Shown: positions 1-40,814 of the stretch, one piece after another
Layout of the letters: every line of letters begins with the position of its first letter
Position numbering within the stretch: position 1 is the stretch's first letter
Notes under the pieces: model-generated
Seen by the model: only the letters and a program-made list of their open reading frames with translations
Databases searched by the model: none
Told to the model about the DNA's origin: nothing
Program-made: the position numbers and the translations under genes
Source: Alphaproteobacteria bacterium
GTDB lineage: Bacteria; Pseudomonadota; Alphaproteobacteria; JAPYRI01
Assembly: GCA_029941135.1 (NCBI GenBank)
Contig: JAPYRI010000001.1
Span: 6,275 to 70,274, forward strand
Direction of reading: 5' to 3'
DNA length: 64,000 nucleotides

Positions 1-279
<279 letters not shown>

Positions 280-380
280 TCAACAGCCATCCCCAACCCG
301 GAAGCGGTGTATATCAAGCGTATTTCGATTCGTACAGGATAAACATAAAGAAATCTTTATATATTTATCAAGCCCTTGAA

Positions 381-737
381 TTAGAGGATAGTGAGCACGT
401 CTTCCGGCGGGCGTCCAAGGGCGGCTTTGCCATTTGCGAGGACGACTGGACGCTCAATTAAAATCGGGTTGGCAACCATGAGTGCAATCAGCGCGGCTCG
501 ATCAAGCGCCTGGTTATCAGCGCCAGAATTTTTGTATGCGGCTTCTTTGCGACGCATTAATTCCCGAGGTTCCTTGCCGAGCAACCCAAGAATCTGATCC
601 AGAGTTACGGCGCTAGGTGGGATCTTCAAATACTCAATAACAGACGGCTTGATGCCTCTACTCTGCAATAAAGCTAGGGTCTGCCGAGACTTGCTACATT
701 TCGGATTATGGTAGATGACGACCTCTGACAACTGCAC
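381..737 (-). CDS. arsC: Arsenate reductase, glutaredoxin-dependent ArsC family (Spx/ArsC/YffB fold).
   Basis: 118 aa. The N-terminal stretch VVIYHNPKCSKSRQTLALL aligns with the E. coli R773 ArsC catalytic Cys12 region (IYHNPACGTSRNTL). The C-terminal ILIERPVV...LGRPPEDVLTIL also matches ArsC. Confidence 0.75.
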   Translation of the reverse strand: MQLSEVVIYHNPKCSKSRQTLALLQSRGIKPSVIEYLKIPPSAVTLDQILGLLGKEPRELMRRKEAAYKNSGADNQALDRAALIALMVANPILIERPVVLANGKAALGRPPEDVLTIL

Positions 738-773
738 CTCCTGAAAAGAATTCTTTGGCGTGCCGTGTTTGCC

Positions 774-1823: not shown

Positions 1824-1856
1824 GCTTTCCCCCTTATTTGCCCGACTTGACGACTT

Positions 1857-2951: not shown

Positions 2952-2980
2952 CTAAATGCGTCTTTCTCCTCAATCGCGAT

Positions 2981-4573: not shown

Positions 4574-4751
4574 GGACAAACCTTTTTGGGGCACCGCGTG
4601 GCCAAGTGCCGGAAACCTAGGCTGCCAGCGGAGTATCGTCAACTTGGCCAGAACAATCAAATGGGAACATTGAGCGAACCTTGCATGGCGGGCCGACAAT
4701 CGCGCCGTTATACTCCAGCGCCATGACATCCAATCACCGGTTTTCACCAAC

Positions 4752-7514: not shown

Positions 7515-7632
7515 TCTGAAATCCTATGGTCCCTCCGCCAATTCAGGTACATTGGGGTTCTTGTTCTTGGCAATCATAAGCGAGCAAATAATGAGCTAAT
7601 CGGTTTCGCCGCAAACGGCGCTAATCTATCTC

Positions 7633-8004
7633 ATGGTCACGACTTCGGCGGCTGACTCCAATATGACCGATCGCGAACTCATGACCATGGGAGATATGGT
7701 CCGCATGTTACCCGTGTTCGAGGGCTTTGATCACGAGAGCATCGTCTCCGTCGCCGAAGAATGCGCGACCTTGCTGGACACCGATGACGGGTTGGATCAA
7801 GTATTGGATATGGTCGCAAATAGTCTCGCCGCACGCTTGCACGAAACCGCCTATGCGATTTGCTGCGATATTGTCGCCGCCGATGGCAACGCCGACCAAG
7901 AAGAACTGCGCATTCTTGAAATGGTTCGACACCGGCTGGACGTAGACCGTTTAGCGGCTGCCGGGATTGAGCGCGGGGCCCGCGCCCGCCACATGAAACT
8001 CTAG
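7633..8004 (+). CDS. TerB-like (tellurite-resistance TerB / DjlA N-domain family) small protein.
   Basis: 123 aa, acidic and helical. Shows the TerB-like pattern …TAYAICCDIVAADGNADQEELRILEMVRHRLDVD…. Confidence 0.5.
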   Translation: MVTTSAADSNMTDRELMTMGDMVRMLPVFEGFDHESIVSVAEECATLLDTDDGLDQVLDMVANSLAARLHETAYAICCDIVAADGNADQEELRILEMVRHRLDVDRLAAAGIERGARARHMKL

Positions 8005-8010
8005 GCCCGA

Positions 8011-8673
8011 TCAGCCCAACTCAGCAACAAATTCGGCAATTCCAGCAATCGCCTGCTGCCAATTTTGGTCCTGGGTGCGGCCAGATTTCTTGCGCGGCTT
8101 TAAATCGTGATCGCCGTCCTCGAGCCACAAAAAGTGGATGTGGGAGCTAAGGTCATACTCAGCAACTTGATCACATGTGCCGAAGGGGTCGCGGCTGCCT
8201 TGCACCACCAACATGGGCGTTTGCAGAGCCTTAAGATGTTCGGTCCGTAGTTTCTCCGGCTTTCCCGGCGGATGAAAAGGATAGCCCAGACAAACGACCC
8301 CCGCGACCGGCACACCAGAGTCAGATGCAGTTGCTGCGGCCATGGAGGCAATTCGTCCCCCCATGGACTTGCCACCGATAACCAGTCGATCCGCCGGGCC
8401 AAGGACGTCGATCACCCGAGCCCAGGCATCCAGCAAAACCGGCGGGCGGTCAGGACCACGTTTTTTTCCATCTACGCGGCGCCCGGCCATATAAGGAAAC
8501 TCGAAGCGCGCCACACGTACCCCGTGCGCACCGAGCGCACCCGCAAACGTTGTCAAAAATGGACTGTCCATGGGAGCGCCCGCCCCATGGGCCAAGACCA
8601 GTGTGCGTCCGGAATTAAACCCCGACCCGCCACCTGGTCCGTCAAACAGGAAATTCACCCCCTGTTCACTCAC
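8011..8673 (-). CDS. Alpha/beta-fold hydrolase (dienelactone-hydrolase / KANL3-Tex30-like predicted hydrolase).
   Basis: 220 aa. G-x-S-x-G nucleophile elbow (IGGKSMGGRIASM), an HGAGAPMDSP motif, and late Asp/His residues (…QGSRDPFG…GDHDLKP). Confidence 0.6.
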   Translation of the reverse strand: MSEQGVNFLFDGPGGGSGFNSGRTLVLAHGAGAPMDSPFLTTFAGALGAHGVRVARFEFPYMAGRRVDGKKRGPDRPPVLLDAWARVIDVLGPADRLVIGGKSMGGRIASMAAATASDSGVPVAGVVCLGYPFHPPGKPEKLRTEHLKALQTPMLVVQGSRDPFGTCDQVAEYDLSSHIHFLWLEDGDHDLKPRKKSGRTQDQNWQQAIAGIAEFVAELG

Positions 8674-8834
8674 ATAGGCCTCTCAATCGTTCAATTTTCC
8701 ACACGCCACCAGACCCTGTATAACCCAATCTCGGTAAGACAGTATAAGCGCACGGGGAGGACGGCAGGACAGGCTGCTAAATCAGCATTATTCTACGTAC
8801 TCCCTAAAAACTCGGAAACAGAAAACGTAATTCT

Positions 8835-9698
8835 ATGTCACCCGCTTCCCCCAGTTATGTCCTTAAATTGTTGTGCCCCGACCGCATGGGAATTGTCGCC
8901 GGGGTTTCCGGTTTTTTGGCCGAACAGGACTGTAATATTGTCGAATCGTCGCATTTCGGCGATGAAAATACTGAAAAATTCTTCATGCGTGCGGTGTTTG
9001 TGTCGGGGAACGGAACGCCCATTCTTGAACATTTACAGGCCGCTTTTGCGGCGATTGGCAATTGCTTCAAAATTGATTGGGCAATGCACAGTCAGTCCAC
9101 GACACAACGCGTGATGATCCTGGTGTCCAAGATCGATCACTATCTGAACGATCTTCTATACCGTTATCGGACCGGCAAGATCGCCATGGAGATCCCGGCA
9201 GTCGTGTCAAATCATCCGGATCTAAAACCCCTTGCGGACTTTCACGGCATACCCTTTCACCATTTGCCGGTGACAGCCGACACCAAGCCCGAGCAAGAAG
9301 CCAAACTCATGAATCTGGTTGAAGAAACCGGCACGGAGCTGCTGGTGCTGGCCCGCTATATGCAAATATTGACCGATGATTTTTGCAGCAAACTCTCCGG
9401 GCGCATCATCAACATTCATCACTCGTTTCTACCGAGCTTCAAGGGGGCAAAACCTTATCACCAAGCCCCCGACAAAGGCGTAAAGCTGATCGGTGCCACC
9501 GCCCATTACGTAACCCCATCATTGGACGAAGGCCCGATCATTGAGCAAGATACAGTGCGGGTCAGCCACGTTCACACGGCCGAGCAAATGGTCACGCTCG
9601 GCAGTAACGTGGAAAATATCGTTCTTGCGCGGGCGGTCTCCTACCATTTGGAGCATCGGGTGTTATTGAACGGCAGCAAAACTGTGGTGTTCGCATGA
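8835..9698 (+). CDS. purU: Formyltetrahydrofolate deformylase.
   Basis: 287 aa. N-terminal ACT domain (YVLKLLCPDRMGIVAGVSGFLAEQDCNIVE) followed by a formyl-transferase domain (…INIHHSFLPSFKGAKPYHQA…GATAHYVT…LDEGPIIEQD). Confidence 0.9.
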   Translation: MSPASPSYVLKLLCPDRMGIVAGVSGFLAEQDCNIVESSHFGDENTEKFFMRAVFVSGNGTPILEHLQAAFAAIGNCFKIDWAMHSQSTTQRVMILVSKIDHYLNDLLYRYRTGKIAMEIPAVVSNHPDLKPLADFHGIPFHHLPVTADTKPEQEAKLMNLVEETGTELLVLARYMQILTDDFCSKLSGRIINIHHSFLPSFKGAKPYHQAPDKGVKLIGATAHYVTPSLDEGPIIEQDTVRVSHVHTAEQMVTLGSNVENIVLARAVSYHLEHRVLLNGSKTVVFA

Positions 9699-17796: not shown

Positions 17797-19449
<1,653 letters not shown>

Positions 19450-21990: not shown

Positions 21991-22548
21991 TCATGCTTTG
22001 GCGTTTAAAGCCTGAACGATCTGCAGGCCGCCGGGGGCATCAACATCCACCCCGCTCACTTCCATGAATCGCGCCATCATCATGTAAAAGCCAATGGCTG
22101 CCGTGATTTCCATCACCTCGCGGTCGGATAAATGTTCCCGCAACGCGGCCAACACCTGATCGCTGGGCCGGACGTTCTGCACCACCTCGTCGGCGAACGC
22201 GAGCACGAGTGCCTCCAGTTCCGTGAAGCAATCACCCGTGCGCTCGCCCTTTTGCAAGGCGTCGATCTGCGCTTGGGTGACCCCAACATCGTTGGCAAAC
22301 GCCTCGTGCTGAACCCATTCGTATTCAGCGTCCGACAATTGGGCGACCCGCAATATGACCAGCTCACGCAACACCGGCGACAGTTTCTGAACGGTCAAAA
22401 TTTTGGCGCCCAGTTGCAACATGGCCGGACAGGCTTCATCCAGATGGCTGACCATGCGCAGAATGTTCAACGATACCGGCATGGAGTGGAGCGTGTGCCG
22501 CGTGGCATCCGAAAGCGTTTCCACATCGGGATAAGGCAGTCGAGACAT
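21991..22548 (-). CDS. Carboxymuconolactone decarboxylase (CMD/AhpD-like) family protein.
   Basis: A 185-aa product from the internal ATG at 22546-22548 (MSRLPYPDVETLSDATRH…). The ORF-track product (312 aa) has a 127-aa non-conserved N-extension. The AhpD-like helical core is present. Confidence 0.65.
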   Translation of the reverse strand: MSRLPYPDVETLSDATRHTLHSMPVSLNILRMVSHLDEACPAMLQLGAKILTVQKLSPVLRELVILRVAQLSDAEYEWVQHEAFANDVGVTQAQIDALQKGERTGDCFTELEALVLAFADEVVQNVRPSDQVLAALREHLSDREVMEITAAIGFYMMMARFMEVSGVDVDAPGGLQIVQALNAKA

Positions 22549-22737
22549 TGTAATTTCCCCCAGAATAATATTTACGGCGCTGACCCTAACACGTTGGCCG
22601 ACGCAGGTGTATTCGCGGCTGCCCGTGCAACGCCGGGGACCAGCCCGTGCAACGCCGTTGGAATGTCTTGCAGTGCCCCCGGGAATGGGGACAATGCGCC
22701 CAACATTTAGGAAATTGAAAACGAAGGAGATCCCTCC

Positions 22738-23157
22738 ATGACGACTGTCAATGTAAGCGAAACCGTGGCCGCCTCCGCCGACGACGTGTGGCGGATCATC
22801 AGCGACTTTGGCGGTGTTGAGCCCAATGAAATGATCGCCGGCTGCACGGTCGACGGCGAGGGGGTTGGCGCTGTGCGCACCATTACCTTGAACGGCGGCG
22901 GCGAAATCATTGAAAGCCTGGAGAGCCATGACAACAGTGCCCAGGTATTCAGTTACGCAATCATCAACGACTGCCCGTTGCCGGTGAAAAACTACCTGTC
23001 CACGGTGAAAGTTTCGGACGACGGCAACGGCGGGGCGACCGTCGATTGGTCGAGCACGTTCGAGGCCGCAGGCGCGCCGGAAGACACTGTCGTTGATCTC
23101 ATCAAAGGAGTCTACAAGGGCGGCATCGCGCGGGTGCGCAGCAAGCTCGGCCTCTGA
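22738..23157 (+). CDS. SRPBCC-superfamily (Bet v1/polyketide cyclase-like) protein.
   Basis: 139 aa. Shows the Polyketide_cyc2-like pattern (VSETVAASADDVWRIISDFGG…), and the RBS GGAGA sits 8 nt upstream of the start. Confidence 0.6.
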   Translation: MTTVNVSETVAASADDVWRIISDFGGVEPNEMIAGCTVDGEGVGAVRTITLNGGGEIIESLESHDNSAQVFSYAIINDCPLPVKNYLSTVKVSDDGNGGATVDWSSTFEAAGAPEDTVVDLIKGVYKGGIARVRSKLGL

Positions 23158-26829: not shown

Positions 26830-28858
<2,029 letters not shown>

Positions 28859-28974: not shown

Positions 28975-29003
28975 GATTTAAGAAGTCAAAATTGGCAGTT
29001 CAA
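28975..29003 (-). promoter_or_regulatory. Candidate sigma70-type promoter of groESL2, immediately upstream of CIRCE.
   Basis: Minus strand: TTGAAC (28998-29003), a 17-nt spacer, then TAAATC (28975-28980). CIRCE starts 16 nt downstream of the -10. Confidence 0.4.
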
Positions 29004-29075
29004 GTACCTTTCCAGGGCTATTTTGACAAAGCCCGACCGTGCTACGCTTCTATGTCGTCATTTACGGAGAAAACT

Positions 29076-29615
29076 ATGTCCCGCATCCCCCTCGCCGAAC
29101 CCGAGACATTGCCGCCATATTTGAGGAAAATGCACGATGAAGCCCGTCCTGACGATTGGTCAACACGCAATTGCGCGCGTGCATTCGCCGCCCACCCCGA
29201 TCTTTTGGAGCAGTATTTAGGCTTTTATTACCCCTACCACTCCAACGACGGCGTGGAAGGCAAACTCGACCCGCGTCTGAAAGAACTGGTGCGGCTGCGC
29301 ATCGCCACCCTAAACGGCTGCAAGTCATGCAAAGCCGCGCGGCTCGCGCCTGGAAAAGTGACCGAGCATGAAGCGATTGTGGGAGTCGACCAGCGCGACA
29401 AAGGGCCATTTAGTGCTCAGGAACGGGCTGCCATTGAGCTCGCCGAAGCCATGGCGCTGACCCATCACGACATCGATGACGACGCCTTTCGCCGGGCCAA
29501 AGAACATTTCTCGGACGCGGAACTACTTGAATTGATGATGATGGCGGGTCAGTACATTGGCCTCGGCCGAATGCTGGCGATACTCCAGTTGGAAACCGTC
29601 ACCTGCCCCATCTAG
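29076..29615 (+). CDS. Carboxymuconolactone decarboxylase (CMD/AhpD-like) family protein.
   Basis: 179 aa from the ATG at 29076 (MSRIPLAEPE…), with GGAGA 7 nt upstream. AhpD-like core containing …LNGCKSCKAARLAPG… The ORF-track start at 28992 would run into the groES2 promoter. Confidence 0.65.
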   Translation: MSRIPLAEPETLPPYLRKMHDEARPDDWSTRNCARAFAAHPDLLEQYLGFYYPYHSNDGVEGKLDPRLKELVRLRIATLNGCKSCKAARLAPGKVTEHEAIVGVDQRDKGPFSAQERAAIELAEAMALTHHDIDDDAFRRAKEHFSDAELLELMMMAGQYIGLGRMLAILQLETVTCPI

Positions 29616-29649: not shown

Positions 29650-30693
29650 TTAAAACCCGTAGGCTTCGGCCAATGCCGGATCTTTTTGCGCCACCATTTT
29701 CGCCAGATCGACCATCACCTTGGCCTGTTTCCATGTCGCATCATCTTGCATCTTACCATCGATTAGGACGGCGCCGGTGCCATCCGGCATGGCCTCCAGG
29801 ATACGTTTCGCAAACAAAACCTCGTCCACATCGGGGCTAAACACTTTCTTCGCGATAGCGATTTGCGACGGATGCAGGCTCCATGTGCCCAAGCACCCCT
29901 GCAGAAAAGCATTGCGGAATTGGGCTTCACATGCGGCGGGGTCGGAGAAGTCGCCGAAGGGACCATAAAACGCCTTCAACCCATTCGCCATGCAGGCATC
30001 GACCATGCGTCCGACCGTGTAGTGCCACAGGTCCTGCTGATAGAAATTGCGCTCGTCGACTCCTTCACGGGCATCTTCAAGCACCCCATAAAACGGATGT
30101 CCACCGCCCACGCGGGTGGTCTTCATGCCGCGTGAGGCCGCCAAATCGGCGGGGCCCAAACTCATGCCATGCATGCGCGGGCTGGCCGCTGCAATGTCAG
30201 TTACGTTATTTACACCTTGCGCGGTTTCCAATAGGGCATGAATGAGGATCGGCTTCTTGATGTTATGCTTCGCCTCCAATTGGGCGAGCAATTGATCGAG
30301 GTAATAAATGTCCCAAGGACCCTCCACCTTGGGCAGCATCATCACATCGAGCTTGTCACCGATGTTGGCGACAATTTCGTTTATGTCATCCAGCACCCAG
30401 GGGCTGTTCAGGGCATTTATCCGGGTCCACAGGCCAGTTGACCCGAAGTCTGTCGCTTTGGCGACCTCAATAAAACCAGTCCGCGCGGCTTCCTTGGCGT
30501 CGGCTGGAATGGCATCTTCCAGATTGCCCAGTAGCACGTCCACCTGCTCGATCATGTTGGGTACTTTGGCGCAAATTTTTGCGATGTGCGGCGGGAAAAA
30601 GTGAATCATCCGCTCAGGCACAACCGGCAGTTCGCGCACCGGCGCTGGCGCACCGATAGCCAAGGGTTTGTAGAAATTAATTGGCAGTTTCAT
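29650..30693 (-). CDS. mcl: L-malyl-CoA/beta-methylmalyl-CoA lyase (HpcH/HpaI aldolase-citrate lyase family).
   Basis: 347 aa. From memory it is co-linear over the full length with the characterised Chloroflexus/Rhodobacter-type Mcl ([36 protein letters not shown]…[14 protein letters not shown]…[27 protein letters not shown]…[15 protein letters not shown]). Confidence 0.8.
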
Positions 30694-30830
30694 GAAAACT
30701 CCAAAGCGAGATCAGAAGTTTGATATTATGGGCGCCGAAGGAAGTACACGGCTCATGACCCGCCGTCAAATTCGAACACTTGTTTTCTAAGCGCGCTTCA
30801 GGTGACAGTGGCACGGATTGAGGAGGAACT

Positions 30831-31826
30831 TTGACGATGACTTTCAAAACGCCACTGTGTGATCTTTTGGGCATTGCCCATCCCGTGCTACAAGCGGGCA
30901 TGGGCCAAGTGGCGCACGGCGCTTTGGCGGGGGCGGTATCGGCGGCCGGCGGCTTGGGCGTTATTGGCGCCGGCTACATGTCGGCCGACGAATTGCGCGC
31001 CGAAATCGCGGTCGTTCGGGCCCACACCGCGAATCCCTTTGGCGTCGATATTCTGTTTGGTAAGGTTGAGACAGACGACCAAGGGTCGGTGCGCTATGCC
31101 CAGCGTGTTCAGGATCAGATTGCGGTTTCATTGGACGCTAAAGTACCGGTGCTCATCTCCGGGCTTGGCAATCCGCAAGGCATAGTCGACGCCGCACACC
31201 AGCAGGGCATCAAAATCATGTCGGTGGTGGGCAATGTGCGGCAGGCGAAGCGCGTGGTCGATATAGGGGTCGATGTGGTGATTGCATCTGGCGCCGAAGG
31301 CGGCGGCCACGTGGGCCGCGTGGGTACGGTCAGCCTGGTGCCCCAAGTGGTTGATGCCGTTCGGGTGCCAGTGATCGCGGGCGGCGGCCTTGCCGACGGA
31401 AGGGGGTTGGTCGCGTCTCTGGCCATGGGTGCCCAGGGAATATGGCTCGGCACCCGCTTTATCGTCACCAATGAGGCGCGCGGCCACATTAACTACAAAA
31501 ACAAGATCGTCGCCATCGACGAAGAAGGCACCATCATCTCCCGGGGTCACAGCGGCAAACCCTGCCGCCTTATCAGGAACGAATTCACGACGTATTGGGA
31601 AAGCCACGCATCCGACATTAAACCCTACCCCCAGCAGCTGGTCGAAGTGGGCGAACCGGCAACTCTGTTGGGACGGATTGAAGGCGACGCCGACAAAGGT
31701 GTTTTGCCCGCCGGCCAGAGCAGTGGTCTCATAGACAGCGTGAAAGGGGCGGGCCGCGTGGTGACCGACATCATGGCCGAAGCCGAACAGGTTTTATCGG
31801 CCCTGGCTAAATTGGCAGACGCCTAA
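30831..31826 (+). CDS. Nitronate monooxygenase family protein (NMO/2-nitropropane dioxygenase, FMN-dependent).
   Basis: 331 aa. N-terminus LGIAHPVLQAGMGQVAHGALAGAVSAAGGLGVIGAGY and the later GG motif (…VIAGGGLADGRG…). Confidence 0.75.
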   Translation: MTMTFKTPLCDLLGIAHPVLQAGMGQVAHGALAGAVSAAGGLGVIGAGYMSADELRAEIAVVRAHTANPFGVDILFGKVETDDQGSVRYAQRVQDQIAVSLDAKVPVLISGLGNPQGIVDAAHQQGIKIMSVVGNVRQAKRVVDIGVDVVIASGAEGGGHVGRVGTVSLVPQVVDAVRVPVIAGGGLADGRGLVASLAMGAQGIWLGTRFIVTNEARGHINYKNKIVAIDEEGTIISRGHSGKPCRLIRNEFTTYWESHASDIKPYPQQLVEVGEPATLLGRIEGDADKGVLPAGQSSGLIDSVKGAGRVVTDIMAEAEQVLSALAKLADA

Positions 31827-31847: not shown

Positions 31848-32726
31848 TCACGCCTCGGGGGCGAGCGCTTCCAAAGCATTCCAGTCGGGCCCCGGCTGAC
31901 CATCGGGGCGGATCGGCTGGATAACCACCTGGCCCGCGCCGCTATCAAAATGAGCCTGAAGCTTCGCCTGTATGTCATCGGTATTGCCCCATATGACCAT
32001 GGCGTCCATCAAACGATCACTGCCGCCATTTTCAAGATCGCTTTCATCGAACCCGAGCCTGAACCAATTTTTAAAATAATTGGGCAGGGGCAAATACGGC
32101 GTCATGGCGTCCCGCGCAGCGGCGCGCGCCTCGTCCCCGTTTGTGGTCAGGCAAATTTTCTGTTCCGTGCAGACAAAATTATCGGCGCCGACTTGCTGGC
32201 GCGCGATCCCCGCATGTTCCGGGGTCACATTGTAGGGCAGCGCGCCCAAAGTGCGTTCGCCGGACAATTTCAGCATATTGGGGCCGAGGGCCGCGAGCAT
32301 AACTTGCTTCACCGCAGGCGCGCCGCCAAACGCCTCCCACGCCTGATCCATGGCGTCTAAGTATGCGCGCATGGTTGAGACAGGTTTTCTGCTGTATTCG
32401 TGCCCACGCACGTCCGCTACCAACGGCGAATGCGAGACCCCCAGTCCGAGAATGAAGCGCTTGTCATAAAGGCCGTTCAAAGTGTTGTGCCCCATCACCG
32501 ACGCCGCAGCATCGCGGGCATAAATATTAGCAATACCGCTGGCGACAATCAGTTTCTCCGAATGCTGGAGCAGATAGCCGCCCAATGCCATGGTTTCGTA
32601 GTTAAACGCCTCCGGATACCACAAAGTCGAGTAACCCAGTTCCTCAACGCGACGGGCCAAATTGGCGAGCTCGTCAGGCGCCATAACATCGGTAAATGTG
32701 AAGACGCCGTATTTTCCGAGTTTCAT
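31848..32726 (-). CDS. LLM-class (luciferase-like) flavin-dependent oxidoreductase, tandem paralog B.
   Basis: 292 aa from the ATG at 32724-32726 (MKLGKYGVFTFTD…). About 55% identical to the upstream paralog over the full length. Confidence 0.7.
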   Translation of the reverse strand: MKLGKYGVFTFTDVMAPDELANLARRVEELGYSTLWYPEAFNYETMALGGYLLQHSEKLIVASGIANIYARDAAASVMGHNTLNGLYDKRFILGLGVSHSPLVADVRGHEYSRKPVSTMRAYLDAMDQAWEAFGGAPAVKQVMLAALGPNMLKLSGERTLGALPYNVTPEHAGIARQQVGADNFVCTEQKICLTTNGDEARAAARDAMTPYLPLPNYFKNWFRLGFDESDLENGGSDRLMDAMVIWGNTDDIQAKLQAHFDSGAGQVVIQPIRPDGQPGPDWNALEALAPEA

Positions 32727-32758
32727 AAATATTCTCCCAAGGTCTATAAAAACTACCC

Positions 32759-33637
32759 TTATCCAGGCGCAAGGGCTTCCAGTGCGTTCCAATCAGGGAC
32801 CCCTGCTCCGTCCGGACGGAGCGATTGAATACCGACGTGAGTGGCGCCGGCATCCAGGTGAGCTTTCAGGCGGGCAAGAATGTCATCCTCCGTGCCCCAG
32901 GCAACCATGGCGTCCATCAGCCGGTCACTGCCACCGTTGCTCCAGTCTTCTTCGTTGAACCCAACACTCGACCAAATATCGTGGTAGCGCGGAAACTCCA
33001 AATAAAAGCTGAGAGTCCGACGCGCAGTCGCCCGGGCTTCGGCGGGATTGGTGGTGAGACAAACGTTCTGCACGGCCACCAGCGTTGAATCGGCTCCAAT
33101 TCTTTCTCGCGCGCGCGCCGTCAATTCAGGTGTATTGTTGTAGGGTATCGGCCCGAGGGTGCTCTCAGCCGCCAGTTTCTGCATGCCTGGGCCCAATGCC
33201 GCCAGCATCAATCTCTTTTCCCCATTGAATGGGCCGCCCAACACCTCCCAGGCGGCATCCATGTCGTCTAAATATTTACGCATGGTCGAAAGCGGCTTTT
33301 CGAACACATGCCCCCCGCCGCGAATATCGAGAATGCCAGGGTGGGACACGCCAAGGCCCAAAACGAAACGGTCACCATAAAGCTTGTTAAGAGAGTTATA
33401 GCCCTGGGCTGCCGCCATAGGATCACGGGCAAAGATGTTGGCAATACCGTTGGCGATAATCAAACTCTCGGTTTGGCTCAGTAAAAAGGCGCCCTGAGCC
33501 ATGGCCTCGTAGTCGAAGACCTCCGGATACCACAAAGTTTTGTAGCCGAGTTGTTCGGTGCGCGGGCCGAGCTCGGCCATTTGCGCCGGGCTGAGGCCGT
33601 CGGTAAACACGACCACGCCGAGTTCGCCAAAATCCAT
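32759..33637 (-). CDS. LLM-class (luciferase-like) flavin-dependent oxidoreductase, tandem paralog A.
   Basis: 292 aa from the ATG at 33635-33637 (MDFGELGVVVFTD…). It starts 67 nt downstream of the paaE stop on the same strand. Confidence 0.7.
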   Translation of the reverse strand: MDFGELGVVVFTDGLSPAQMAELGPRTEQLGYKTLWYPEVFDYEAMAQGAFLLSQTESLIIANGIANIFARDPMAAAQGYNSLNKLYGDRFVLGLGVSHPGILDIRGGGHVFEKPLSTMRKYLDDMDAAWEVLGGPFNGEKRLMLAALGPGMQKLAAESTLGPIPYNNTPELTARARERIGADSTLVAVQNVCLTTNPAEARATARRTLSFYLEFPRYHDIWSSVGFNEEDWSNGGSDRLMDAMVAWGTEDDILARLKAHLDAGATHVGIQSLRPDGAGVPDWNALEALAPG

Positions 33638-33704
33638 GAAGTTCCTCCCATGTAAGCGCCGCAGCATAACCGGTTGAGAGGCCGGCGAGTAGACCCTACG
33701 GAGA

Positions 33705-34787
33705 TTACATTTCGTCGAAGTCCAATTCGACGGTATCGGTCAATGGCCGTGACTGGCACGTGAGCACAAAACCCGCGTCCAGCTCCCATGGCTCAAGGCT
33801 ATAATTGACCGGCATGTCAACCTTACCTTTGGTCACCTTAGCCCGGCACGAGGTGCACATCCCGCCCATGCAGGAATAGGGGATATCGACACCTTCAGCG
33901 ATGGCGCTATCGAGGATATTGCCGTCGGCCACCGGCACGGCAAACTCGGATCGCACCCCATCGACCACGACAGATACGCACGCGTCATCCCCGGCAGTTT
34001 CGGCTTTGGCTTTCGGCTTTGGCGAGAGAGTGGGCACGTCGCCGTCATCAGTCGCGAACCGTTCGAAATGAATGCACTCATCCGCGACACCTAAATTCTT
34101 CAAAGCTTTTGTCACATCAGAGATCATGGAGCCAGGACCGCACACAAACACGCCGTCAAGCGCGGAGGCCGGACATGCGGTTGCCATCAGGCCGGCAACT
34201 TTCGTAGCATCAATGCGACCATTCAGCAGATCCGATTCCTGATCTTCGCCGCTAAGAATATGAAAAATACTGAGCCGCCCCATATGACGGTTCTTAAGAT
34301 CGTCGATCCGGTCGCGGAAAATCACTGACGCCGTATTGCGGTTGCCATAGAACAAAAACACCTGAGCATTCGACTCGGAGTCCAACAGTGTCGCAATAAT
34401 TGAAATCACCGGCGTAATGCCGCTGCCGGCGGCAAACGCCGCATATGTCTTGCGCGTAGCTGGTTCTGGGATCACCCGAAACTTGCCGGTCGGAGTCATG
34501 ACTTGAACCCGACTGCCAACCCGAAAATCTTCGTGGGCATAGGTCGAATATGCGCCGTCGGGCACTTTTTTGATGGCGACGCGCAGTTCACCATCGCCAG
34601 CGCCGCTGCAGATAGAGTAGCACCGGCGCACATCTTCGCCATCAATATCGGCGCGCAAGGTCAGGTGCTGGCCAGCATCAAACTTGTACGCGTCGGCCAG
34701 ATCGTCCGGCACCTCAAAAGCGATTGAAACCGCGTCGTCGGTCTCAAGCCGCACGTCGGCAATCGTCAGTTCATGAAAGCGGGCCAT
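33705..34787 (-). CDS. paaE: 1,2-phenylacetyl-CoA epoxidase reductase subunit PaaE (ferredoxin-NAD(P)H reductase with a C-terminal plant-type 2Fe-2S domain).
   Basis: 360 aa. FAD/NAD-binding FNR-like N-domain, then a C-terminal 2Fe-2S ferredoxin (…YSCMGGMCTSCRAKV…). Confidence 0.85.
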   Translation of the reverse strand: MARFHELTIADVRLETDDAVSIAFEVPDDLADAYKFDAGQHLTLRADIDGEDVRRCYSICSGAGDGELRVAIKKVPDGAYSTYAHEDFRVGSRVQVMTPTGKFRVIPEPATRKTYAAFAAGSGITPVISIIATLLDSESNAQVFLFYGNRNTASVIFRDRIDDLKNRHMGRLSIFHILSGEDQESDLLNGRIDATKVAGLMATACPASALDGVFVCGPGSMISDVTKALKNLGVADECIHFERFATDDGDVPTLSPKPKAKAETAGDDACVSVVVDGVRSEFAVPVADGNILDSAIAEGVDIPYSCMGGMCTSCRAKVTKGKVDMPVNYSLEPWELDAGFVLTCQSRPLTDTVELDFDEM

Positions 34788-34790
34788 CAA

Positions 34791-35267
34791 TCAAATGCAC
34801 TTAAAGTGATCGAAGGGTTCGCGGCAGGTAATGCAGCGATAGAGCGCCTTGCAGGCGGTTGAGCCGAACTCACTCAGGCACTCGGTCTCAGATGAACCGC
34901 ATTGCGGGCACCGCACTTCTCCGGGTGGGGAAATGCCGTAATCTTCAAGTTTGCGACGGCCATCCGCGCTCATCCAATCCGTGGTCCAGGCGGGCGACAC
35001 CACCGTTTCAACCACCGCGGAATTAAAGCCATGATCGCACAAGGCGGTCAGTATATCGGCCTTGATGGTGTCCATGGCCGGACAGCCGGTGTACGTGGGC
35101 GTGATAGACACTATCGCCCGGTCGCCATCCATCCGCACGTCCCGGGCAATCCCCAGATCGACGATGGTCAATACTGGGATTTCCGGATCCACCACGGTCT
35201 CCAATACCTGCCATATTTTGGCTGATACCTCGTTCTGCGCTTGCGCGGGGGCAGTTTCGGTCACCAT
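34791..35267 (-). CDS. paaD: 1,2-phenylacetyl-CoA epoxidase subunit PaaD (DUF59/SufT-like).
   Basis: 158 aa. DUF59 core (VWQVLETVVDPEIPVLTIVDLGIARDV) and a C-terminal four-Cys segment (CPQCGSSETE…CITCREPFDHFKC). Confidence 0.85.
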   Translation of the reverse strand: MVTETAPAQAQNEVSAKIWQVLETVVDPEIPVLTIVDLGIARDVRMDGDRAIVSITPTYTGCPAMDTIKADILTALCDHGFNSAVVETVVSPAWTTDWMSADGRRKLEDYGISPPGEVRCPQCGSSETECLSEFGSTACKALYRCITCREPFDHFKCI

Positions 35268-36043
35268 GTTGCGTCCGGATGGGTACGCGGCAGGATTTGC
35301 ATGTCGGCCAGCATATGGCGCAATCCTTCGCCGTGATCGCCGGTGATACCGCCGATGGCAAACTCATTGTCATCAGGTCGGATTAAGGTTGCTTCAGCTA
35401 GGACGTCAACAACCCGTTGGTCCCATAAGGGTTTCAATGCCGCGCGATCCACGCCAATGCCCGCCGCTACAACAACTTGATCGATGTCATCCACTGCAAA
35501 CATTTCGCCCGTGTAGCGCCACAATTCATCAAGCGCGGTTTGCGTCCGCCGCTGGCTTTTGGCGGTGCCATCGCCAAGCCGCACGACCCAGCCCGCGCTA
35601 AACCGGAAGTGATAGGTGATTTCTTTGACCACCTTAGTGGCAATCGCCGCCAGTCGAGCGTCGCTCGAATGTTGCAATTGAGTATAAAATTCCAGGTTGA
35701 AGGCATCATATAAAAACTGCCGCACGATGGTCACGGCAAAGTCGCCGTTCGGTTGCTCGACCAGCAGCAAATTCCTAAATCCCTCCGCGTCGCGCAAATA
35801 GGCAAGCGCATCTTCGTCTTGACCTGTGCCTTCCACTTCGCCCGCGTAGGTGAGCAGTAATCGCGCCTGGCCGATCAAGTCGAGACCCACATTGAGGAGG
35901 GCGATCTCAACTTCCAGTTCGGGGCCATGGGCGCACCACTCTCCCAGCCGGTGGCCGAGCACCAGGCTGTTGTCACCCAGACGCAAGATGTATTCGAACA
36001 GTGGGTCAGGGTCTGCAGTTAGCGCAATGTCAGTTGAAGCCAT
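35261..36043 (-). CDS. paaC: 1,2-phenylacetyl-CoA epoxidase structural subunit PaaC.
   Basis: 260 aa, ferritin-like fold. Gene order places it between paaB and paaD. Confidence 0.85.
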   Translation of the reverse strand: MASTDIALTADPDPLFEYILRLGDNSLVLGHRLGEWCAHGPELEVEIALLNVGLDLIGQARLLLTYAGEVEGTGQDEDALAYLRDAEGFRNLLLVEQPNGDFAVTIVRQFLYDAFNLEFYTQLQHSSDARLAAIATKVVKEITYHFRFSAGWVVRLGDGTAKSQRRTQTALDELWRYTGEMFAVDDIDQVVVAAGIGVDRAALKPLWDQRVVDVLAEATLIRPDDNEFAIGGITGDHGEGLRHMLADMQILPRTHPDATW

Positions 36044-36060
36044 GATCGGTTCATCCGCCC

Positions 36061-36351
36061 TTACATATTCTCGACGCCGTCCGGCACTTTATAAAAGGTG
36101 GGGTGCCGATAAATTTTATCCGCCGTGGGCTCAAAAAACGCGGCTTTATCCGCCGGGTCCGACGCCGTGATCTCGACCGAAGGCACAACCCAAATGCTGG
36201 TTCCTTCAGCCCGCCGGGTATAAACGTCGCGCGCATTCTCAAGCGCCATTTTGGAGTCGGCCGCATGCAGACTGCCCGCATGCTTATGGCTGAGACCATT
36301 GCGACCGCGGATAAATACTTCATACAGCGGCCAATCAGATTGCAGCATCAT
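36061..36351 (-). CDS. paaB: 1,2-phenylacetyl-CoA epoxidase subunit PaaB.
   Basis: 96 aa (…WPLYEVFIRGRNGLSHKHAGSLHAADSKMALENARDVYTRR…). This family is highly conserved. Confidence 0.9.
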   Translation of the reverse strand: MMLQSDWPLYEVFIRGRNGLSHKHAGSLHAADSKMALENARDVYTRRAEGTSIWVVPSVEITASDPADKAAFFEPTADKIYRHPTFYKVPDGVENM

Positions 36352-36402
36352 TTGATCCTTCCCAATAAGGCCCTATTCGGCTGCTTCGCGGCTGCGTTGG
36401 CG

Positions 36403-37368
36403 CTATTTCTCCGCATGCGCGGCAGCAGCTTCTCGCACCCAGGCGCCATTTTCATGCGCTGCCGTACGGATTTCCATCCGCTCCACATTGCACGGGCCAT
36501 CGCCGTTCAACACGCGCTTAAATTCTTCCCAATCAATCTCGCCATAATCGTAGTGACCTTCGCTCGCATTCCACTTGAGATCAGGGTCCGGCAATTTCAG
36601 TCCGATGCGGTCACCCTGAGGCACCGTTGCATCAATAAATTTCTGCCGGAGTTCGTCGTTGGTGAAGCGCTTGATCTTCCATTGCATGGATTTGGACGAA
36701 TGGGCCGAGTCTTTATCCGAAGGCCCAAACATCATCAAAGCCGGCCACCACCATCGGTCGAGCGCGTCTTGCGCCATTTGATGCTGTTCCGGTGTCCCGT
36801 TGGCCATATCCGAAATGAGCTCGTAACCCTGACGCTGATGAAAACTCTCTTCCTTGCAGACTCGGATCATCGCACGGGCGTACGGCCCATATGAACACCG
36901 GCACAGGGGGATCTGGTTCATGATCGCCGCGCCATCAACCAACCAGCCTACGGCGCCTAAATCGGCCCAATTCAAAGTCGGATAATTAAAAATGCTTGAG
37001 TACTTCGCTTTGCCACTCAGCAATTGGTCAACTAAATCACTGCGCGCAACACCAAGTGTTTCCGCCGCGCTATACAGATAAAGGCCGTGACCGGCCTCGT
37101 CTTGGATTTTCGCCATCAACACGCCCTTGCGTTTAAGCGTAGGGGCACGGCTCAGCCAGGCGCCTTCGGGCTGCATGCCGATCACTTCCGAGTGGGCGTG
37201 CTGGGATATTTGCCGGACTAAGGTTTTCCGGTAAGCCGCCGGCATCCAGTCGTTGGGCTCAATTTTTTCGTCCCGGTCGATGCGGGCTTGAAAACGGACG
37301 AGCGCTTCCCGATCATCCTGGCTGAGATCGCTGTCGGTAGGCGTTCCGTTTAAGCTCTGGGTGTACAT
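36403..37368 (-). CDS. paaA: 1,2-phenylacetyl-CoA epoxidase catalytic subunit PaaA.
   Basis: 321 aa, di-iron ferritin-like oxygenase (…[51 protein letters not shown]…). Confidence 0.9.
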
Positions 37369-37422
37369 CCGTTCTCCCTAGCCAATTTGTCGTGGCAGTT
37401 ACCGAGACCTAATGTCCAATCA

Positions 37423-37467
37423 ATATATCACATAAATACAACAAATCGATAATTTTATGTAATATAT
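37423..37467. promoter_or_regulatory. AT-rich 14-bp imperfect inverted repeat in the paaA promoter region, a candidate PaaX operator.
   Basis: ATATATCACATAAA (37423-36), a 17-nt spacer, then TTTATGTAATATAT (37454-67). One mismatch between arms. It lies 55-100 nt upstream of the paaA start and just downstream of the paaX stop. Confidence 0.4.
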
Positions 37468-37472
37468 CATAT

Positions 37473-38411
37473 TCATTGCGTCAAACCACCAAATCTTTGC
37501 CAAAATGCCCCTTCAGGCGGCGGCAATGAACTGTCCCCGCGCTCGAAATGGTCAGATATCCATTGTTCGGAGAGCGTAACCACTTGCCCATAAAAGTGGC
37601 GGGCCAGACGCCGGGCTTGGGTTCCTGCCCAGTCTTGCGGCAGCAGTTCAGCCGGTAATAATGGATCGCGCAATATGATGCGGCGATAATCGTGGATGAG
37701 CATGATCCGCGCCAGCATACACTCCCAAGCGGACAGTTCAGCGCCATTGTTTAAAGCCCGGCCAAGTGCCCCAAATCTCGCGACAAAATCGTCGTAGTCA
37801 TGGGCGAGATCTTGCAACGCCCAACAGTCGTCGACCAAACGAGACAGCGATGTGGCCGATGCCGCCGGATCACCGCCACCACGAATGATGATCGGCCGAG
37901 ATGCGGTTGGCGACACCTTGGATAAAACCTCCTCCAGCGCGGCACCATCCGGATCCGGGTGAATGAGCACGCCGGACGCGAGTGACCCAAAACCGATCCA
38001 ACCCAATTCTTTGCGCAATTGGTCCCGCCATGCGCTCGCACCACCCGGCGTAATGACCAGGCAAAACGCGCCTGACCATGCGGGCGGCGCACTTGAGTAA
38101 ATACGCCGAGTCGCCGCATCAAAGCGCCCGCGTCCAGAACGGGTCAGAGTGTAAAAGCTTTTGCGTCCCCGCCGCTCGGCCACAAACCATTTGTCATCAG
38201 TGAGGCGCGACATGGCGGTGCGCGCCTGACTATCGTTAATGCCAAACGCATGCAAAAGCGGCAACAGGCTGCCGAGCCACAGCGTGCCGCCCCGGGGCGC
38301 GACCGCGTCGCCAAAGACCGTGGTGATCAATGAGCCCGCGCGACTCGGTTTACGGCTGGCAAATTCGGCGGTCAGGTTGGTGACCCATTCATTGGGGAGC
38401 GGTTCCGGCAT
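37473..38411 (-). CDS. paaX: Phenylacetic acid degradation operon negative regulator PaaX.
   Basis: 312 aa. N-terminal winged-helix region typical of PaaX (…SLITTVFGDAVAPRGGTLWLGSLLPLLHAFGINDSQARTAMSRLTDDKWFVAERRGRKSFYTLTRSG…). Confidence 0.85.
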   Translation of the reverse strand: MPEPLPNEWVTNLTAEFASRKPSRAGSLITTVFGDAVAPRGGTLWLGSLLPLLHAFGINDSQARTAMSRLTDDKWFVAERRGRKSFYTLTRSGRGRFDAATRRIYSSAPPAWSGAFCLVITPGGASAWRDQLRKELGWIGFGSLASGVLIHPDPDGAALEEVLSKVSPTASRPIIIRGGGDPAASATSLSRLVDDCWALQDLAHDYDDFVARFGALGRALNNGAELSAWECMLARIMLIHDYRRIILRDPLLPAELLPQDWAGTQARRLARHFYGQVVTLSEQWISDHFERGDSSLPPPEGAFWQRFGGLTQ

Positions 38412-38550
38412 GGCAAAATCGTTAAGCCCTTGGCGGCCAATTGTCCATGGGCAGTGGGGCCCAAAGTCGCGTTGCTGTCATCTTTACTAAACATTTGTTA
38501 GGATACCGGCACACGATATTGGCAAAATCACAAACGAATCGGGGCCACGC

Positions 38551-39669
38551 ATGCATGTCGGATACAGCGCGTTTTTTCAAAATCTCACCGGGGACCTGAC
38601 CGACCATCAGGTCTATCAAAACGCTATTGAGCTCGCCGATATGGCTGAGCCTCTAGGTTTCGAGTCGATCTGGGCGGCCGAGCACCATTTTACCGAATAC
38701 ACCATGTGCCCGAACGTCACTCAGTTCCTCACCTACATGGCGGGGCGCACCAAAACCGTAAAATTGGGCGCCATGGCTTATATCGTGCCGTGGCACGAAC
38801 CGATCCGGCTGGCAGAAGAAATTTGTGTGTTGGACAACGTATCAAACGGACGCGCAATTCTGGGCTTTGGTCGCGGCTTGGGCCGGGTCGAATTCGATGC
38901 CTTCCGCCTCGAGATGGGGGAGAGCCGGGAGCGGTTCGTTGAATTTACCGACGCCATCCTGACCGCCCTCGAGACCGGCTACATCGAATATGACGGCAAG
39001 CATTACCAGCAGCCCAGAGCCGGCATCCGACCCGCCCCCTTCAAGTCTTTCCGTGACCGCAGTTATGCCGCCGCCGTGTCCCCCGAATCAGCGCGCATCA
39101 TGGCCCGCCTCGGCATCGGCATCCTCGTCATTCCACAGAAACCCTGGGAAATTACCAAGCAAGAAGTGGCCATGTACCGGGAGATTTTTCGCGAAGAAAA
39201 CAATGGCGCCGAAGCGCCCAAGCCGATCATCGCCGCATTTGTCGCCTGCCACGAAGACGAAAGCGTGGCCAAAGAAATGCACGAGAAATATATCCGGCGC
39301 TACAGCCGCTCGGCGCTTGAACATTACGAATTTGCCAATGCTGAATTGGCCAACATCAAGGGTTACGAGTACTACGGCGGGATCGCCAAAAACATCGAAA
39401 AACACGGCGTCGATGCCTTCGTCAATTTCCTCGCCGACCTGCAGATCTGGGGCACCCCCGATCAGGTGTTCGAGCAGATGATGGAACATCAAAGTATGAT
39501 CGACAGCGGCGCCTCGGTCGGTATGTTCAGTTATGGCGGCATGCCCCACGACATGGCAACCGGCAATCTGAAACTGTTCGCGGAAAAAGTCCTGCCACGC
39601 CTAAAAGCGCAAGACGTGGGCGAAACCATTGGCGGCGCGGGCACGCCTCTGACAGTCGCCGCCGAGTAG
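38551..39669 (+). CDS. LLM-class flavin-dependent oxidoreductase (luciferase-like monooxygenase, bacterial luciferase/SsuD-like subgroup).
   Basis: 372 aa. Starts MHVGYSAFFQNL…GFESIWAAEHHFTEYTMCPNV…, a characteristic LLM N-terminus. It is divergent from paaX. Confidence 0.7.
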   Translation: MHVGYSAFFQNLTGDLTDHQVYQNAIELADMAEPLGFESIWAAEHHFTEYTMCPNVTQFLTYMAGRTKTVKLGAMAYIVPWHEPIRLAEEICVLDNVSNGRAILGFGRGLGRVEFDAFRLEMGESRERFVEFTDAILTALETGYIEYDGKHYQQPRAGIRPAPFKSFRDRSYAAAVSPESARIMARLGIGILVIPQKPWEITKQEVAMYREIFREENNGAEAPKPIIAAFVACHEDESVAKEMHEKYIRRYSRSALEHYEFANAELANIKGYEYYGGIAKNIEKHGVDAFVNFLADLQIWGTPDQVFEQMMEHQSMIDSGASVGMFSYGGMPHDMATGNLKLFAEKVLPRLKAQDVGETIGGAGTPLTVAAE

Positions 39670-39788: not shown

Positions 39789-40814
39789 TTGCAAAACCAC
39801 CGCCAAAACATACCATCGGGCAGCATTCGAGTAATCTACCCTTTTGACCATGTTTTTTGTATGAACATACACCCGCCAATAAAGTTTCTGGACCCGCGAA
39901 CGACTGTTGACGGCAGTCCTCGCGCGACAGTCAAGCTCATGCATCTGGAAACCTTGTGGTTCAATACTGGCACGCTCTGCAATCTTGAATGCAAAGATTG
40001 CTATATCGAGTCGAGCCCCAAGAATGATCGCTTGGTTTACCTGACCGCCAACGAAATCTCGGTTTTTTTGGATGAGATCGAACGCGATCATTTGGGCACA
40101 CGGGAAATTGGCTTTACCGGCGGCGAGCCTTTCATGAACCCCGATATCGTCGCCATGATGACAGATTGCCTCGAGCGCGGGTTCGAAGTGTTGGTGTTGA
40201 CCAACGGCATGCGGCCGATGATGAAGCTCGATACTCAATTGTTGGCGCTGAACTGCCGATTCGGTGCCAAACTTAGGTTGCGTGTGTCCCTCGATCACTA
40301 CAGCAAATCGCGCCACGAAGAGTTGCGCGGTCCACACTCGTGGGCGCCGACCATTACCGGCTTGACGTGGTTGTCAGATCAAGGATTCCGTGTCCACATG
40401 GCCGGCCGTACGGTTTGGGGCGATGACGAAGCCACAATTCGCAATGGGTTTGCCCATCTATTTTCGCAGATGAACCTCAACATCGACCCTCACAGCCCAA
40501 CACAATTGATATTGTTTCCGGAAATGGACGAAGCTGCGCCGGTGGCCGAAATAACCACCTCCTGCTGGTCTCTCCTCAGCGTCGATCCAAATTCTCTCAT
40601 GTGCGCAAGCTCACGCATGGTTGTGAAACACAAGGGCGCCGACCGGCCTACCATACAGGCCTGCACCCTGCTGCCCTACGACCCGCGCTTTGCGCTCGGA
40701 TCCTCTTTGCGCGCCGCCACTTCCGACCCGGTTGCCCTTAATCACCCCCATTGCTCCAAATTTTGCGTGCTTGGCGGCGGCGCCTGCAGCGTTTCAGAGG
40801 TCTCCTCGACTTGA
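39789..40814 (+). CDS. Radical SAM/Cys-rich-domain protein (TIGR04167/ArsS-like family).
   Basis: CxxxCxxC (TGTLCNLECKDCY) in the first 70 residues. The C-terminal roughly 100 aa holds six further Cys (…CWSLL…CASS…ACTLL…HCSKFCVLGGGACS). The stop codon is TGA. The likely start is the ATG at 39861 (MNIHPP…) or 39939 (MHLETL…). Confidence 0.6.
   Translation: MQNHRQNIPSGSIRVIYPFDHVFCMNIHPPIKFLDPRTTVDGSPRATVKLMHLETLWFNTGTLCNLECKDCYIESSPKNDRLVYLTANEISVFLDEIERDHLGTREIGFTGGEPFMNPDIVAMMTDCLERGFEVLVLTNGMRPMMKLDTQLLALNCRFGAKLRLRVSLDHYSKSRHEELRGPHSWAPTITGLTWLSDQGFRVHMAGRTVWGDDEATIRNGFAHLFSQMNLNIDPHSPTQLILFPEMDEAAPVAEITTSCWSLLSVDPNSLMCASSRMVVKHKGADRPTIQACTLLPYDPRFALGSSLRAATSDPVALNHPHCSKFCVLGGGACSVSEVSST

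Follow-up and report, generated by a model that had tools for sequence, protein, structure and literature searches.

A phenylacetyl-CoA epoxidase operon followed by two predicted F420-type luciferase-like oxidoreductase genes in a clade of uncultured marine Alphaproteobacteria

In the paa catabolon of Escherichia coli K-12 and Pseudomonas putida, the genes for the five subunits of the 1,2-phenylacetyl-CoA epoxidase follow one another in the order paaA to paaE, are accompanied by paaX, and have paaF-K, paaZ, paaI, and paaY in their vicinity. The paaABCDE genes form the one invariant paa operon, and the other paa genes vary in their placement (PMC2653477). Marine Alphaproteobacteria, including the Roseobacter group and Labrenzia, show “extensive pathway fragmentation” of paa, with stand-alone paaABCDE clusters accompanied by a local regulator (PMC13186573). 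The locus described here lies in a 64,000-nt stretch of DNA (referred to below as the window) from Alphaproteobacteria bacterium (assembly GCA_029941135.1, contig JAPYRI010000001.1, positions 6,275 to 70,274 of the forward strand); the block under study occupies positions 31848 to 39669 of the window, to which all coordinates refer unless another contig is named. This locus has the five epoxidase genes in the same order as in E. coli and P. putida, together with paaX, and, similarly to the fragmented pathways, it keeps them as a stand-alone cluster with its own regulator. Unlike the E. coli and P. putida catabolon, it lacks the adjacent paaF-K, paaZ, paaI, and paaY and carries two genes of the TIGR03620 family after paaE; among the fragmented marine pathways, no configuration has been described in which genes of the luciferase-like (LLM) family or of F420 type are found inside the epoxidase operon. 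The initial annotation of this DNA viewed such an oxygenase-plus-LLM arrangement as distinct from the textbook paa operon, and the arrangement is indeed real, being conserved in four diverged lineages of a single clade.

Eight genes are transcribed from the minus strand (31848-38411) in the order paaX-paaA-paaB-paaC-paaD-paaE-LLM1-LLM2. They are listed below in the direction of transcription with two of the spacers that separate them; the Paa proteins were scored against the NCBIfam equivalog cutoffs, which follow the respective bit scores, and protein lengths are given in amino acids (aa).

37473-38411, minus strand: paaX, 312 aa, phenylacetyl-CoA-responsive repressor (TIGR02277, 281.9 bits, cutoff 264.55; Pfam domains PaaX, PaaX_M, and PaaX_C).
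37369-37472, minus strand: paaX-paaA spacer, AT-rich, presumed promoter/operator of paaA.
36403-37368, minus strand: paaA, 321 aa, catalytic di-iron subunit of the 1,2-phenylacetyl-CoA epoxidase (TIGR02156, 524 bits, cutoff 280).
36061-36351, minus strand: paaB, 95-96 aa (TIGR02157, 140.9 bits, cutoff 85.45).
35261-36043, minus strand: paaC, 260 aa (TIGR02158, 288.9 bits, cutoff 133.35).
34791-35267, minus strand: paaD, 158 aa (TIGR02159, 165.1 bits, cutoff 108.15; Pfam domains FeS_assembly_P and Zn_ribbon_PaaD).
33705-34787/34790, minus strand: paaE, 360-361 aa, reductase subunit (TIGR02160, 440 bits, cutoff 420.8; Pfam domains FAD_binding_6, NAD_binding_1, and Fer2).
33638-33704, minus strand: paaE-LLM1 spacer, 67 nt, conserved, with the invariant blocks GGGTCTACTC, CCTC, TATGCT, and GGGAGGA-N4-ATG.
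32759-33637, minus strand: LLM1, 292 aa, F420-type luciferase-like oxidoreductase by family profile (TIGR03620, 259.1 bits, cutoff 219.8).
31848-32726, minus strand: LLM2, 292 aa, F420-type luciferase-like oxidoreductase by family profile (TIGR03620, 266.5 bits, cutoff 219.8).

The complete set of paaA-E and paaX reported in the initial annotation is present, and all six proteins score above their NCBIfam cutoffs. The paaA-E genes are co-directional and abut or overlap. PaaA aligns with E. coli PaaA (3PVR) over residues 25 to 321 with 483 bits and ∼70% identity, retains both di-iron EXXH motifs (as DEAGH and EESFH), and is 72 to 75% identical to the PaaA proteins of Stappia and Azospirillum; PaaE combines FAD, NAD, and 2Fe-2S domains. 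The equivalog scores, the alignment with E. coli PaaA, the EXXH motifs, and the identity to the Stappia and Azospirillum proteins mark this locus, by sequence criteria, as a genuine and orthodox phenylacetyl-CoA ring-1,2-epoxidase operon with paaX. The identity of PaaX itself is 61 to 73% within the lineage and falls to 43% against its outgroup counterpart. In the paaX-paaA spacer, a 14-nt inverted repeat with one mismatch, ATATATTACATAAA-N17-TTTATGTGATATAT (37467-37423, minus strand), is a candidate for the PaaX operator or for an extended -10 element; a block related to this repeat, TTTTGTG(A/C)(T/C)ATAT, recurs on the related contigs L004 and L007, which are introduced below.

The two genes that follow paaE encode tandem paralogs of 57% identity, separated from paaE by 67 nt and from each other by 32 nt. 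This agrees with the initial annotation except for the second gap, which had been given as 33 nt. Both proteins score above the TIGR03620 cutoff, which provides the subfamily assignment that the initial annotation had left to profile searches. We know of no characterized member of this family (the MSMEG_4141 family), and no paper on it was found in the library searched. At the sequence level, the only solved relatives of LLM1 and LLM2 are the F420-dependent Mer enzymes. The AlphaFold2 model of LLM1 (pLDDT 92.1) is a TIM barrel whose top Foldseek matches are the F420-bound KvPepI, Mer, and FGD2 (TM-scores 0.60 to 0.77, 18 to 20% identity), KvPepI being an enzyme of pepstatin biosynthesis. Compared with the F420-dependent LLM enzymes Mer, Adf, Fgd, FGD2/fHMAD, and KvPepI, the pair is similar in that both members pass the TIGR03620 cutoff and the fold of LLM1 is closest to F420-bound structures; it differs in its proteobacterial host, in being only 13 to 20% identical to any solved enzyme, and in the family-invariant motif W-Y-P-E, found where Fgd and Adf presumably have a catalytic histidine. 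LLM1 and LLM2 are predicted, from the family profile and the structural model, to belong to the F420-type hydride-transferase branch and to use F420, and oxygenase activity is not expected of them. The F420-dependent LLM enzymes are direct hydride transferases that act on alcohol, carbonyl, C=C, and C=N groups and are not oxygenases, and F420 production has been recorded for some Alphaproteobacteria (PMC8498797). No genes of F420 biosynthesis were found among the open reading frames (ORFs) of the window, the scan of which covered essentially every ORF of at least 150 aa.

Matches to LLM1, LLM2, PaaA, or LLM372 (a third LLM gene of the block, transcribed divergently from paaX and discussed below) were collected from metagenome contigs (the samples with the block including JGI 3300032132 and ERZ27248692) and contigs of metagenome-assembled genomes, which are designated here by L-numbers and as P0004. 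Four lineages within a single uncultured marine alphaproteobacterial clade, whose members carry the NCBI labels Sneathiellales and Rhodospirillales, have kept the paaX-paaABCDE-LLM1-LLM2 run intact:

Lineage 1: the window and contigs L001 to L003, L009, and L010; identical proteins are HIF11393.1, HIF11398.1, and HIF11399.1 (NCBI “Sneathiellales bacterium”).
Lineage 2: contigs L004 and L005; LLM1 84% identical to that of the window.
Lineage 3: contigs L007, L008, L029 (GCA_013204005.1, contig JABMOX010000585.1, “Rhodospirillales bacterium”), and L030; LLM1 ∼77% identical.
Lineage 4: contig P0004; LLM1 76% identical.

Across these lineages, the block proteins are 74 to 92% identical, and their fourfold-degenerate sites are saturated, at 42 to 47% identity, so the block genes are under purifying selection. 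The layout of the carriers is LLM372 / paaX-paaABCDE-LLM1-LLM2 / NMO / HpcH / (CMD) / groESL, where NMO and HpcH denote the genes for a nitronate monooxygenase and a malyl-CoA lyase that are described below. The left flank varies between lineages, consisting of either the radical SAM gene and metZ or genes for a sensor kinase and a response regulator. On the other side, two lineages (positions 10898-12788 of L007, and P0004) have genes for a Rieske ring-hydroxylating oxygenase alpha-subunit and a MarR regulator inserted between LLM2 and NMO, and a third TIGR03620-like LLM gene extends the tandem in one lineage. The paaE-LLM1-LLM2 junctions have been kept through the rearrangements that altered both flanks of the block. 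As a separate observation, the LLM2/NMO junction is an insertion hot spot, in an area that gains genes related to aromatic compounds. The GC content is an even 0.55 to 0.58 over the block and its flanks with no compositional break at the block, and a horizontal-transfer island was rejected on this ground.

The histories of the two paralogs differ. LLM2 is 65 to 70% identical to LLM proteins of gammaproteobacteria, and LLM1 is 52 to 57% identical to everything beyond its own clade and branches in the tree outside a group that unites LLM2 with the gammaproteobacterial proteins. All members of the LLM1 clade whose context is known are encoded directly 3' of paaE. By its low outside identity, its tree position, and these contexts, LLM1 presents itself as a specialized, lineage-specific paralog known only from the position after paaE.

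Among the window, L004, and the L007/L029 group, the paaE-LLM1 spacer is 72 to 74% identical; for the same lineages, fourfold-degenerate sites in paaE and LLM1 on either side of it have reached saturation (42 to 47% identity), and identity in the remaining spacers of the block is 20 to 66%. Judged from this alignment, the spacer is under purifying selection. The ATG codon of LLM1 is preceded by a strong GGGAGG ribosome-binding site, and the LLM1-LLM2 spacer has a GGGAGA ribosome-binding site before LLM2. The initial annotation had named a terminator or promoter between paaE and LLM1, together with a canonical arrangement of the missing paa genes elsewhere, as a sign of mere adjacency. A scan for sigma-70 promoters and intrinsic terminators, whose hits elsewhere were near the level obtained with shuffled sequences, found no site in the 67-nt spacer, and the best -35 candidate seen on manual inspection of the alignment matches at 2 of 6 positions. 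Contig L004 has a hairpin 3' of LLM2, likely the end of the unit, and none such after paaE. Because the spacer is conserved and has no predicted terminator, co-expression of paaABCDE, LLM1, and LLM2 is likely.

Several other explanations of the spacer were considered and set aside. An Rfam scan of the region from 29.5 to 40 kb at E values of ≤1 gave no match and thus does not place the spacer in any known RNA family. It is not a repeat either, as its motif is unique in the window. A shared operator finds no counterpart in the sequences, no 10-mer being consistently present, between lineages, across the paaA promoter and the LLM372-paaX, paaE-LLM1, and NMO-HpcH spacers. Finally, a start of LLM1 at an upstream in-frame ATG, which would give the 302-aa ORF of the NCBI entry HIF11398.1, is contradicted by a 1-nt indel that breaks the frame in L007, L029, and L030.

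In the consensus fold obtained with RNAalifold, an anti-Shine-Dalgarno (anti-SD) segment, CCUCYC, pairs with the GGGAGG Shine-Dalgarno (SD) sequence of LLM1, and GGGUCUA pairs with the start codon region. The partition function gives this anti-SD/SD pairing a probability of ∼1.0 in L004, L007, and L029 and of 0.74 in L030. The SD sequence of LLM1 may thus be occluded by a hairpin in the spacer. Our preferred reading of this spacer is an element of translational control on a polycistronic mRNA, an independent promoter or operator being the alternative.

The interpretation of the whole locus that we favor, at a probability of roughly one-half, is that of an epoxidase operon extended at its 3' end by a co-transcribed pair of F420-type LLM genes, with the other paa genes located elsewhere in the genome. 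As in E. coli, PaaX would repress the paaA promoter until phenylacetyl-CoA accumulates and releases it, and PaaE would hand electrons from NAD(P)H to the di-iron center of PaaA, at which the ring of phenylacetyl-CoA would be epoxidized. The operon of this one lineage has acquired LLM1 and LLM2 at its 3' end, and both would be encoded on the paaABCDE mRNA, where the 67-nt spacer, with its strong SD sequence and the complementary anti-SD segment, would set the translation of LLM1. By analogy with their enzyme branch, the two proteins could then catalyze a hydride transfer in which an intermediate or a reactive by-product of the active epoxidase is the donor or acceptor, the likely target groups being carbonyl/alcohol, C=C, and C=N; candidate substrates are the semialdehyde formed by ring opening, 3-oxo- or 3-hydroxyacyl-CoA esters, and dead-end cyclic by-products.

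A number of observations weigh against this interpretation. A general linkage between paa and LLM genes is not borne out: there is no paa gene within 10 kb at any of the 18 species-representative genome loci with LLM proteins of 43 to 55% identity, nor on contig L006, and no common neighbor family of the LLM gene emerged across 16 non-paa loci. The gammaproteobacterial relatives of LLM2 likewise lack paa neighbors. A metagenome scan for more relatives returned only L005, and recurrence of the paa-plus-LLM neighborhood in independent lineages was not found in the 18 GTDB loci, L006, or that scan. Only one clade shows the linkage, and its members have the wider neighborhood, from LLM372 to groESL/speDE, in synteny as well; adjacency conserved under these conditions is weak evidence for a common function. 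A weak terminator-like hairpin spans the stop codon of LLM1 (32776-32755). As for the spacer, the window's own copy gives an SD pairing probability of only 0.11 and folds no better than its shuffled versions (z = +0.4), and covariation among the five sequences is not significant. No publication in the library searched connects paa genes to LLM or F420 enzymes.

In an alternative reading, LLM1 and LLM2 form an unrelated two-gene unit of their own, with its promoter or operator in the spacer, and stand beside paaX-paaABCDE, the epoxidase part of a paa pathway that is split up, through vertical inheritance alone. The synteny of the clade between LLM372 and groESL/speDE and the absence of significant RNA structure from the window's own spacer speak for it. 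The spacer could equally be such an independent LLM promoter or operator, a strongly conserved noncoding block with an invariant TATGCT being compatible with this role, and beyond the clade the TIGR03620 family is found in many unrelated contexts, never with paa genes. This is the alternative that survives best and a serious one, if on balance unlikely: it has to contend with a spacer that shows neither a sigma-70-like promoter nor a terminator, with paaE-LLM1-LLM2 junctions that outlasted the rearrangement of both flanks, and with an LLM1 clade that exists only at the position after paaE.

The initial annotation treated three LLM flavin oxidoreductases as one module and noted a nitronate monooxygenase and a malyl-CoA lyase gene just beyond. 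All three additional genes are where it had placed them, the third LLM gene being divergently upstream of paaX, with the following assignments:

38551-39669, plus strand: LLM372, 372 aa, LuxA-like LLM protein, divergent from paaX (Pfam Bac_luciferase, 235.6 bits).
30831-31826, plus strand: NMO, nitronate monooxygenase/FabK-like FMN enzyme (Pfam NMO, 228.7 bits; TIGR03151 [FabK], 277 bits, cutoff 453).
29650-30693, minus strand: malyl-CoA lyase of the HpcH/CitE type, 347 aa, divergent from NMO, homologous to the Chloroflexi-type malyl-CoA/beta-methylmalyl-CoA/citramalyl-CoA lyase.

The LLM genes of the block are therefore two F420-type TIGR03620 paralogs and one unrelated LuxA-like gene. LLM372 resembles the LuxA-like FMN monooxygenases in aligning over its full length with luciferase alpha chains, its best match in PDB being the homodimeric luciferase of Enhygromyxa salina (8CBB, 126 bits). 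It differs from them in falling below every NCBIfam subfamily cutoff (the best being luciferase alpha, with 138 bits against a cutoff of 600) and in having orthologs in varied catabolic contexts. The window contains no flavin reductase gene that could serve as its partner, and there are no lux genes nearby. Its orthologs, at 84% (L037), 75% (L034), and 71% (L035/L036) identity, are all found in non-paa contexts, and the gene is transcribed divergently from the epoxidase operon; the position of LLM372 beside paaX is probably incidental, and the gene does not seem to be part of the system. A link between LLM372 and NMO was also considered and rejected: the NMO protein encoded near the L034 ortholog is only 28% identical and is not an ortholog. 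On L035/L036 (positions 1-9116), the 71% identical ortholog ends a co-directional run of genes for a short-chain dehydrogenase/reductase, an enoyl-CoA hydratase, an acyl-CoA dehydrogenase, another enoyl-CoA hydratase, and a Rieske alpha-subunit; genes for a TetR regulator, a short-chain dehydrogenase/reductase, and an acyl-CoA ligase lie upstream in divergent orientation. This context hints that the LuxA-like family may act in CoA-dependent catabolism.

Among the ORFs of the 64-kb window, there is no paaK, paaG, paaZ, paaJ, paaF, paaH, paaI, or paaY; the absence of the first six had been correctly noted at the outset. The nearest outgroup PaaA (74% identity; contig L031, positions 1-6660) is encoded in a canonical cluster, paaZ-paaK / paaX-paaI-paaA-paaB, whose PaaZ, PaaK, PaaI, and PaaX proteins all score above the equivalog cutoffs. 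Relative to this cluster, LLM372 stands where paaK-paaZ is, and paaI is missing from between paaX and paaA. The canonical arrangement in L031 makes it plausible that the ancestor of the lineage had the full paa set. Neither the isomerase PaaG nor the PaaZ hydratase domain catalyzes a redox reaction. Together with the L031 cluster, the non-redox nature of these steps, and the retention of PaaX, the precedents of fragmentation and the toxicity of the unprocessed ring epoxide (PMC9493321) favor a split pathway, the alternative already raised in the initial annotation, in which paaK, paaG, paaZ, paaJ, paaF, paaH, and paaI are probably encoded elsewhere in the genome.

A more specific proposal, that LLM1 and LLM2 constitute a new, deazaflavin-dependent (F420-type) redox branch of epoxide metabolism whose dosage is fixed by the spacer and which either replaces part of PaaG/PaaZ or detoxifies the aldehyde or epoxide, is doubtful; if true, it would be the first connection of the paa pathway to F420-type LLM enzymes, and in a proteobacterium. 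Further along the same line, and close to what the initial annotation envisaged, the lineage would lack PaaG and PaaZ altogether, and perhaps more enzymes of the lower pathway, with LLM1 and LLM2, possibly aided by LLM372, taking their place in the conversion of the oxepin, the ring epoxide, or the aldehyde left after ring opening; this would be a new route for the products of aryl-CoA ring oxidation. Such a hybrid pathway is improbable, as the non-redox reactions of PaaG and of the PaaZ hydratase domain would not be expected from a hydride transferase, and orthologs of LLM372 as close as 84% identity occur without paa genes. The toxicity of an epoxide left unprocessed and the common occurrence of split paa clusters in marine Alphaproteobacteria (PMC13186573) also argue against it. 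What speaks for it is the lack of any other paa gene in 64 kb, the occupation of the outgroup's paaK-paaZ place by LLM372 and the empty place of paaI, the specialization of LLM1 and its restriction to the position after paaE, the conservation of the spacer, suggestive of tuned co-expression, and the activity of characterized F420-dependent LLM enzymes on alcohol, hemiacetal, and carbonyl groups (PMC8498797), chemistry of the kind called for at the aldehyde or 3-oxo steps of paa catabolism. A role in secondary metabolism, with the epoxidase feeding a tropone-type or other phenylacetyl-CoA-derived product and the LLM pair acting as tailoring reductases in the manner of KvPepI, is very improbable: the upper paa pathway does supply tropone precursors in marine Alphaproteobacteria (PMC9493321, PMC9075582), and the F420-dependent oxidoreductase KvPepI is the closest structural match of LLM1, but that match is only 18 to 20% identical, the block has no tda-like, thioesterase, polyketide synthase/nonribosomal peptide synthetase, or transporter genes, its flanks are made up of housekeeping genes, and control by PaaX points to catabolism.

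The genes on the other side of LLM2 are arranged as separate convergent and divergent transcription units: NMO is convergent with LLM2 across a 21-nt gap, and the malyl-CoA lyase gene is divergent from NMO. Both are probably unrelated neighbors. The lyase is ∼76% identical (626 bits, over the full 347 residues) to the trifunctional enzymes of Roseiflexus (6KIN) and Chloroflexus (4L7Z) and is 87 to 94% conserved across the clade; it differs from these in its alphaproteobacterial host, and the window has no other genes of the 3-hydroxypropionate bi-cycle. The divergent spacer between NMO and the lyase gene (30694-30830) contains a block, TTTGACGGC...GTGTA(A/C)TTCCTT, that is conserved in all three lineages compared and resembles a promoter for the lyase gene.

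Two genes for CMD/YciW-like peroxidase-related proteins are found near the block (28992-29615, plus strand, and 21991-22929, minus strand); most lineages have the copy beside the lyase gene, but L004 lacks it. Two chaperonin-60 genes lie ∼7 kb apart (17800-19449, plus strand, and 26830-28858, minus strand), one of the two being a stand-alone Cpn60 paralog (Pfam, 271 bits) and the other belonging to a canonical groES-groEL pair. A radical SAM gene (39789-40814, plus strand) with a weak match to the Rv1681 family (93.6 bits, cutoff 380) is located between LLM372 and metZ; L004 and L009 have it at the same place, but the left flanks of L007 and the P0004 contig do not contain it. The remaining genes of the window are alphaproteobacterial housekeeping genes, among them groESL, speDE, metZ, folE, trkH, hslO, argFD, pckA, chvIG, pqqBCE, and hldDE.

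The individual genes of this locus have already been annotated by the NCBI pipeline; the extension of the epoxidase operon and the conserved spacer appear to be undescribed. If LLM1 and LLM2 are mere neighbors, the locus simply adds to the fragmented paa clusters of marine Alphaproteobacteria. If instead the pair is functionally tied to the operon, it would bear on the paa pathway, a central aerobic route of aromatic catabolism with toxic epoxide and aldehyde intermediates, by showing an accessory redox pair in the epoxidase operon as a new way of handling such intermediates. The spacer would then provide a compact case of translational tuning within a catabolic operon. For the uncharacterized TIGR03620 family, which is abundant in marine Proteobacteria, it would be the first physiological context.

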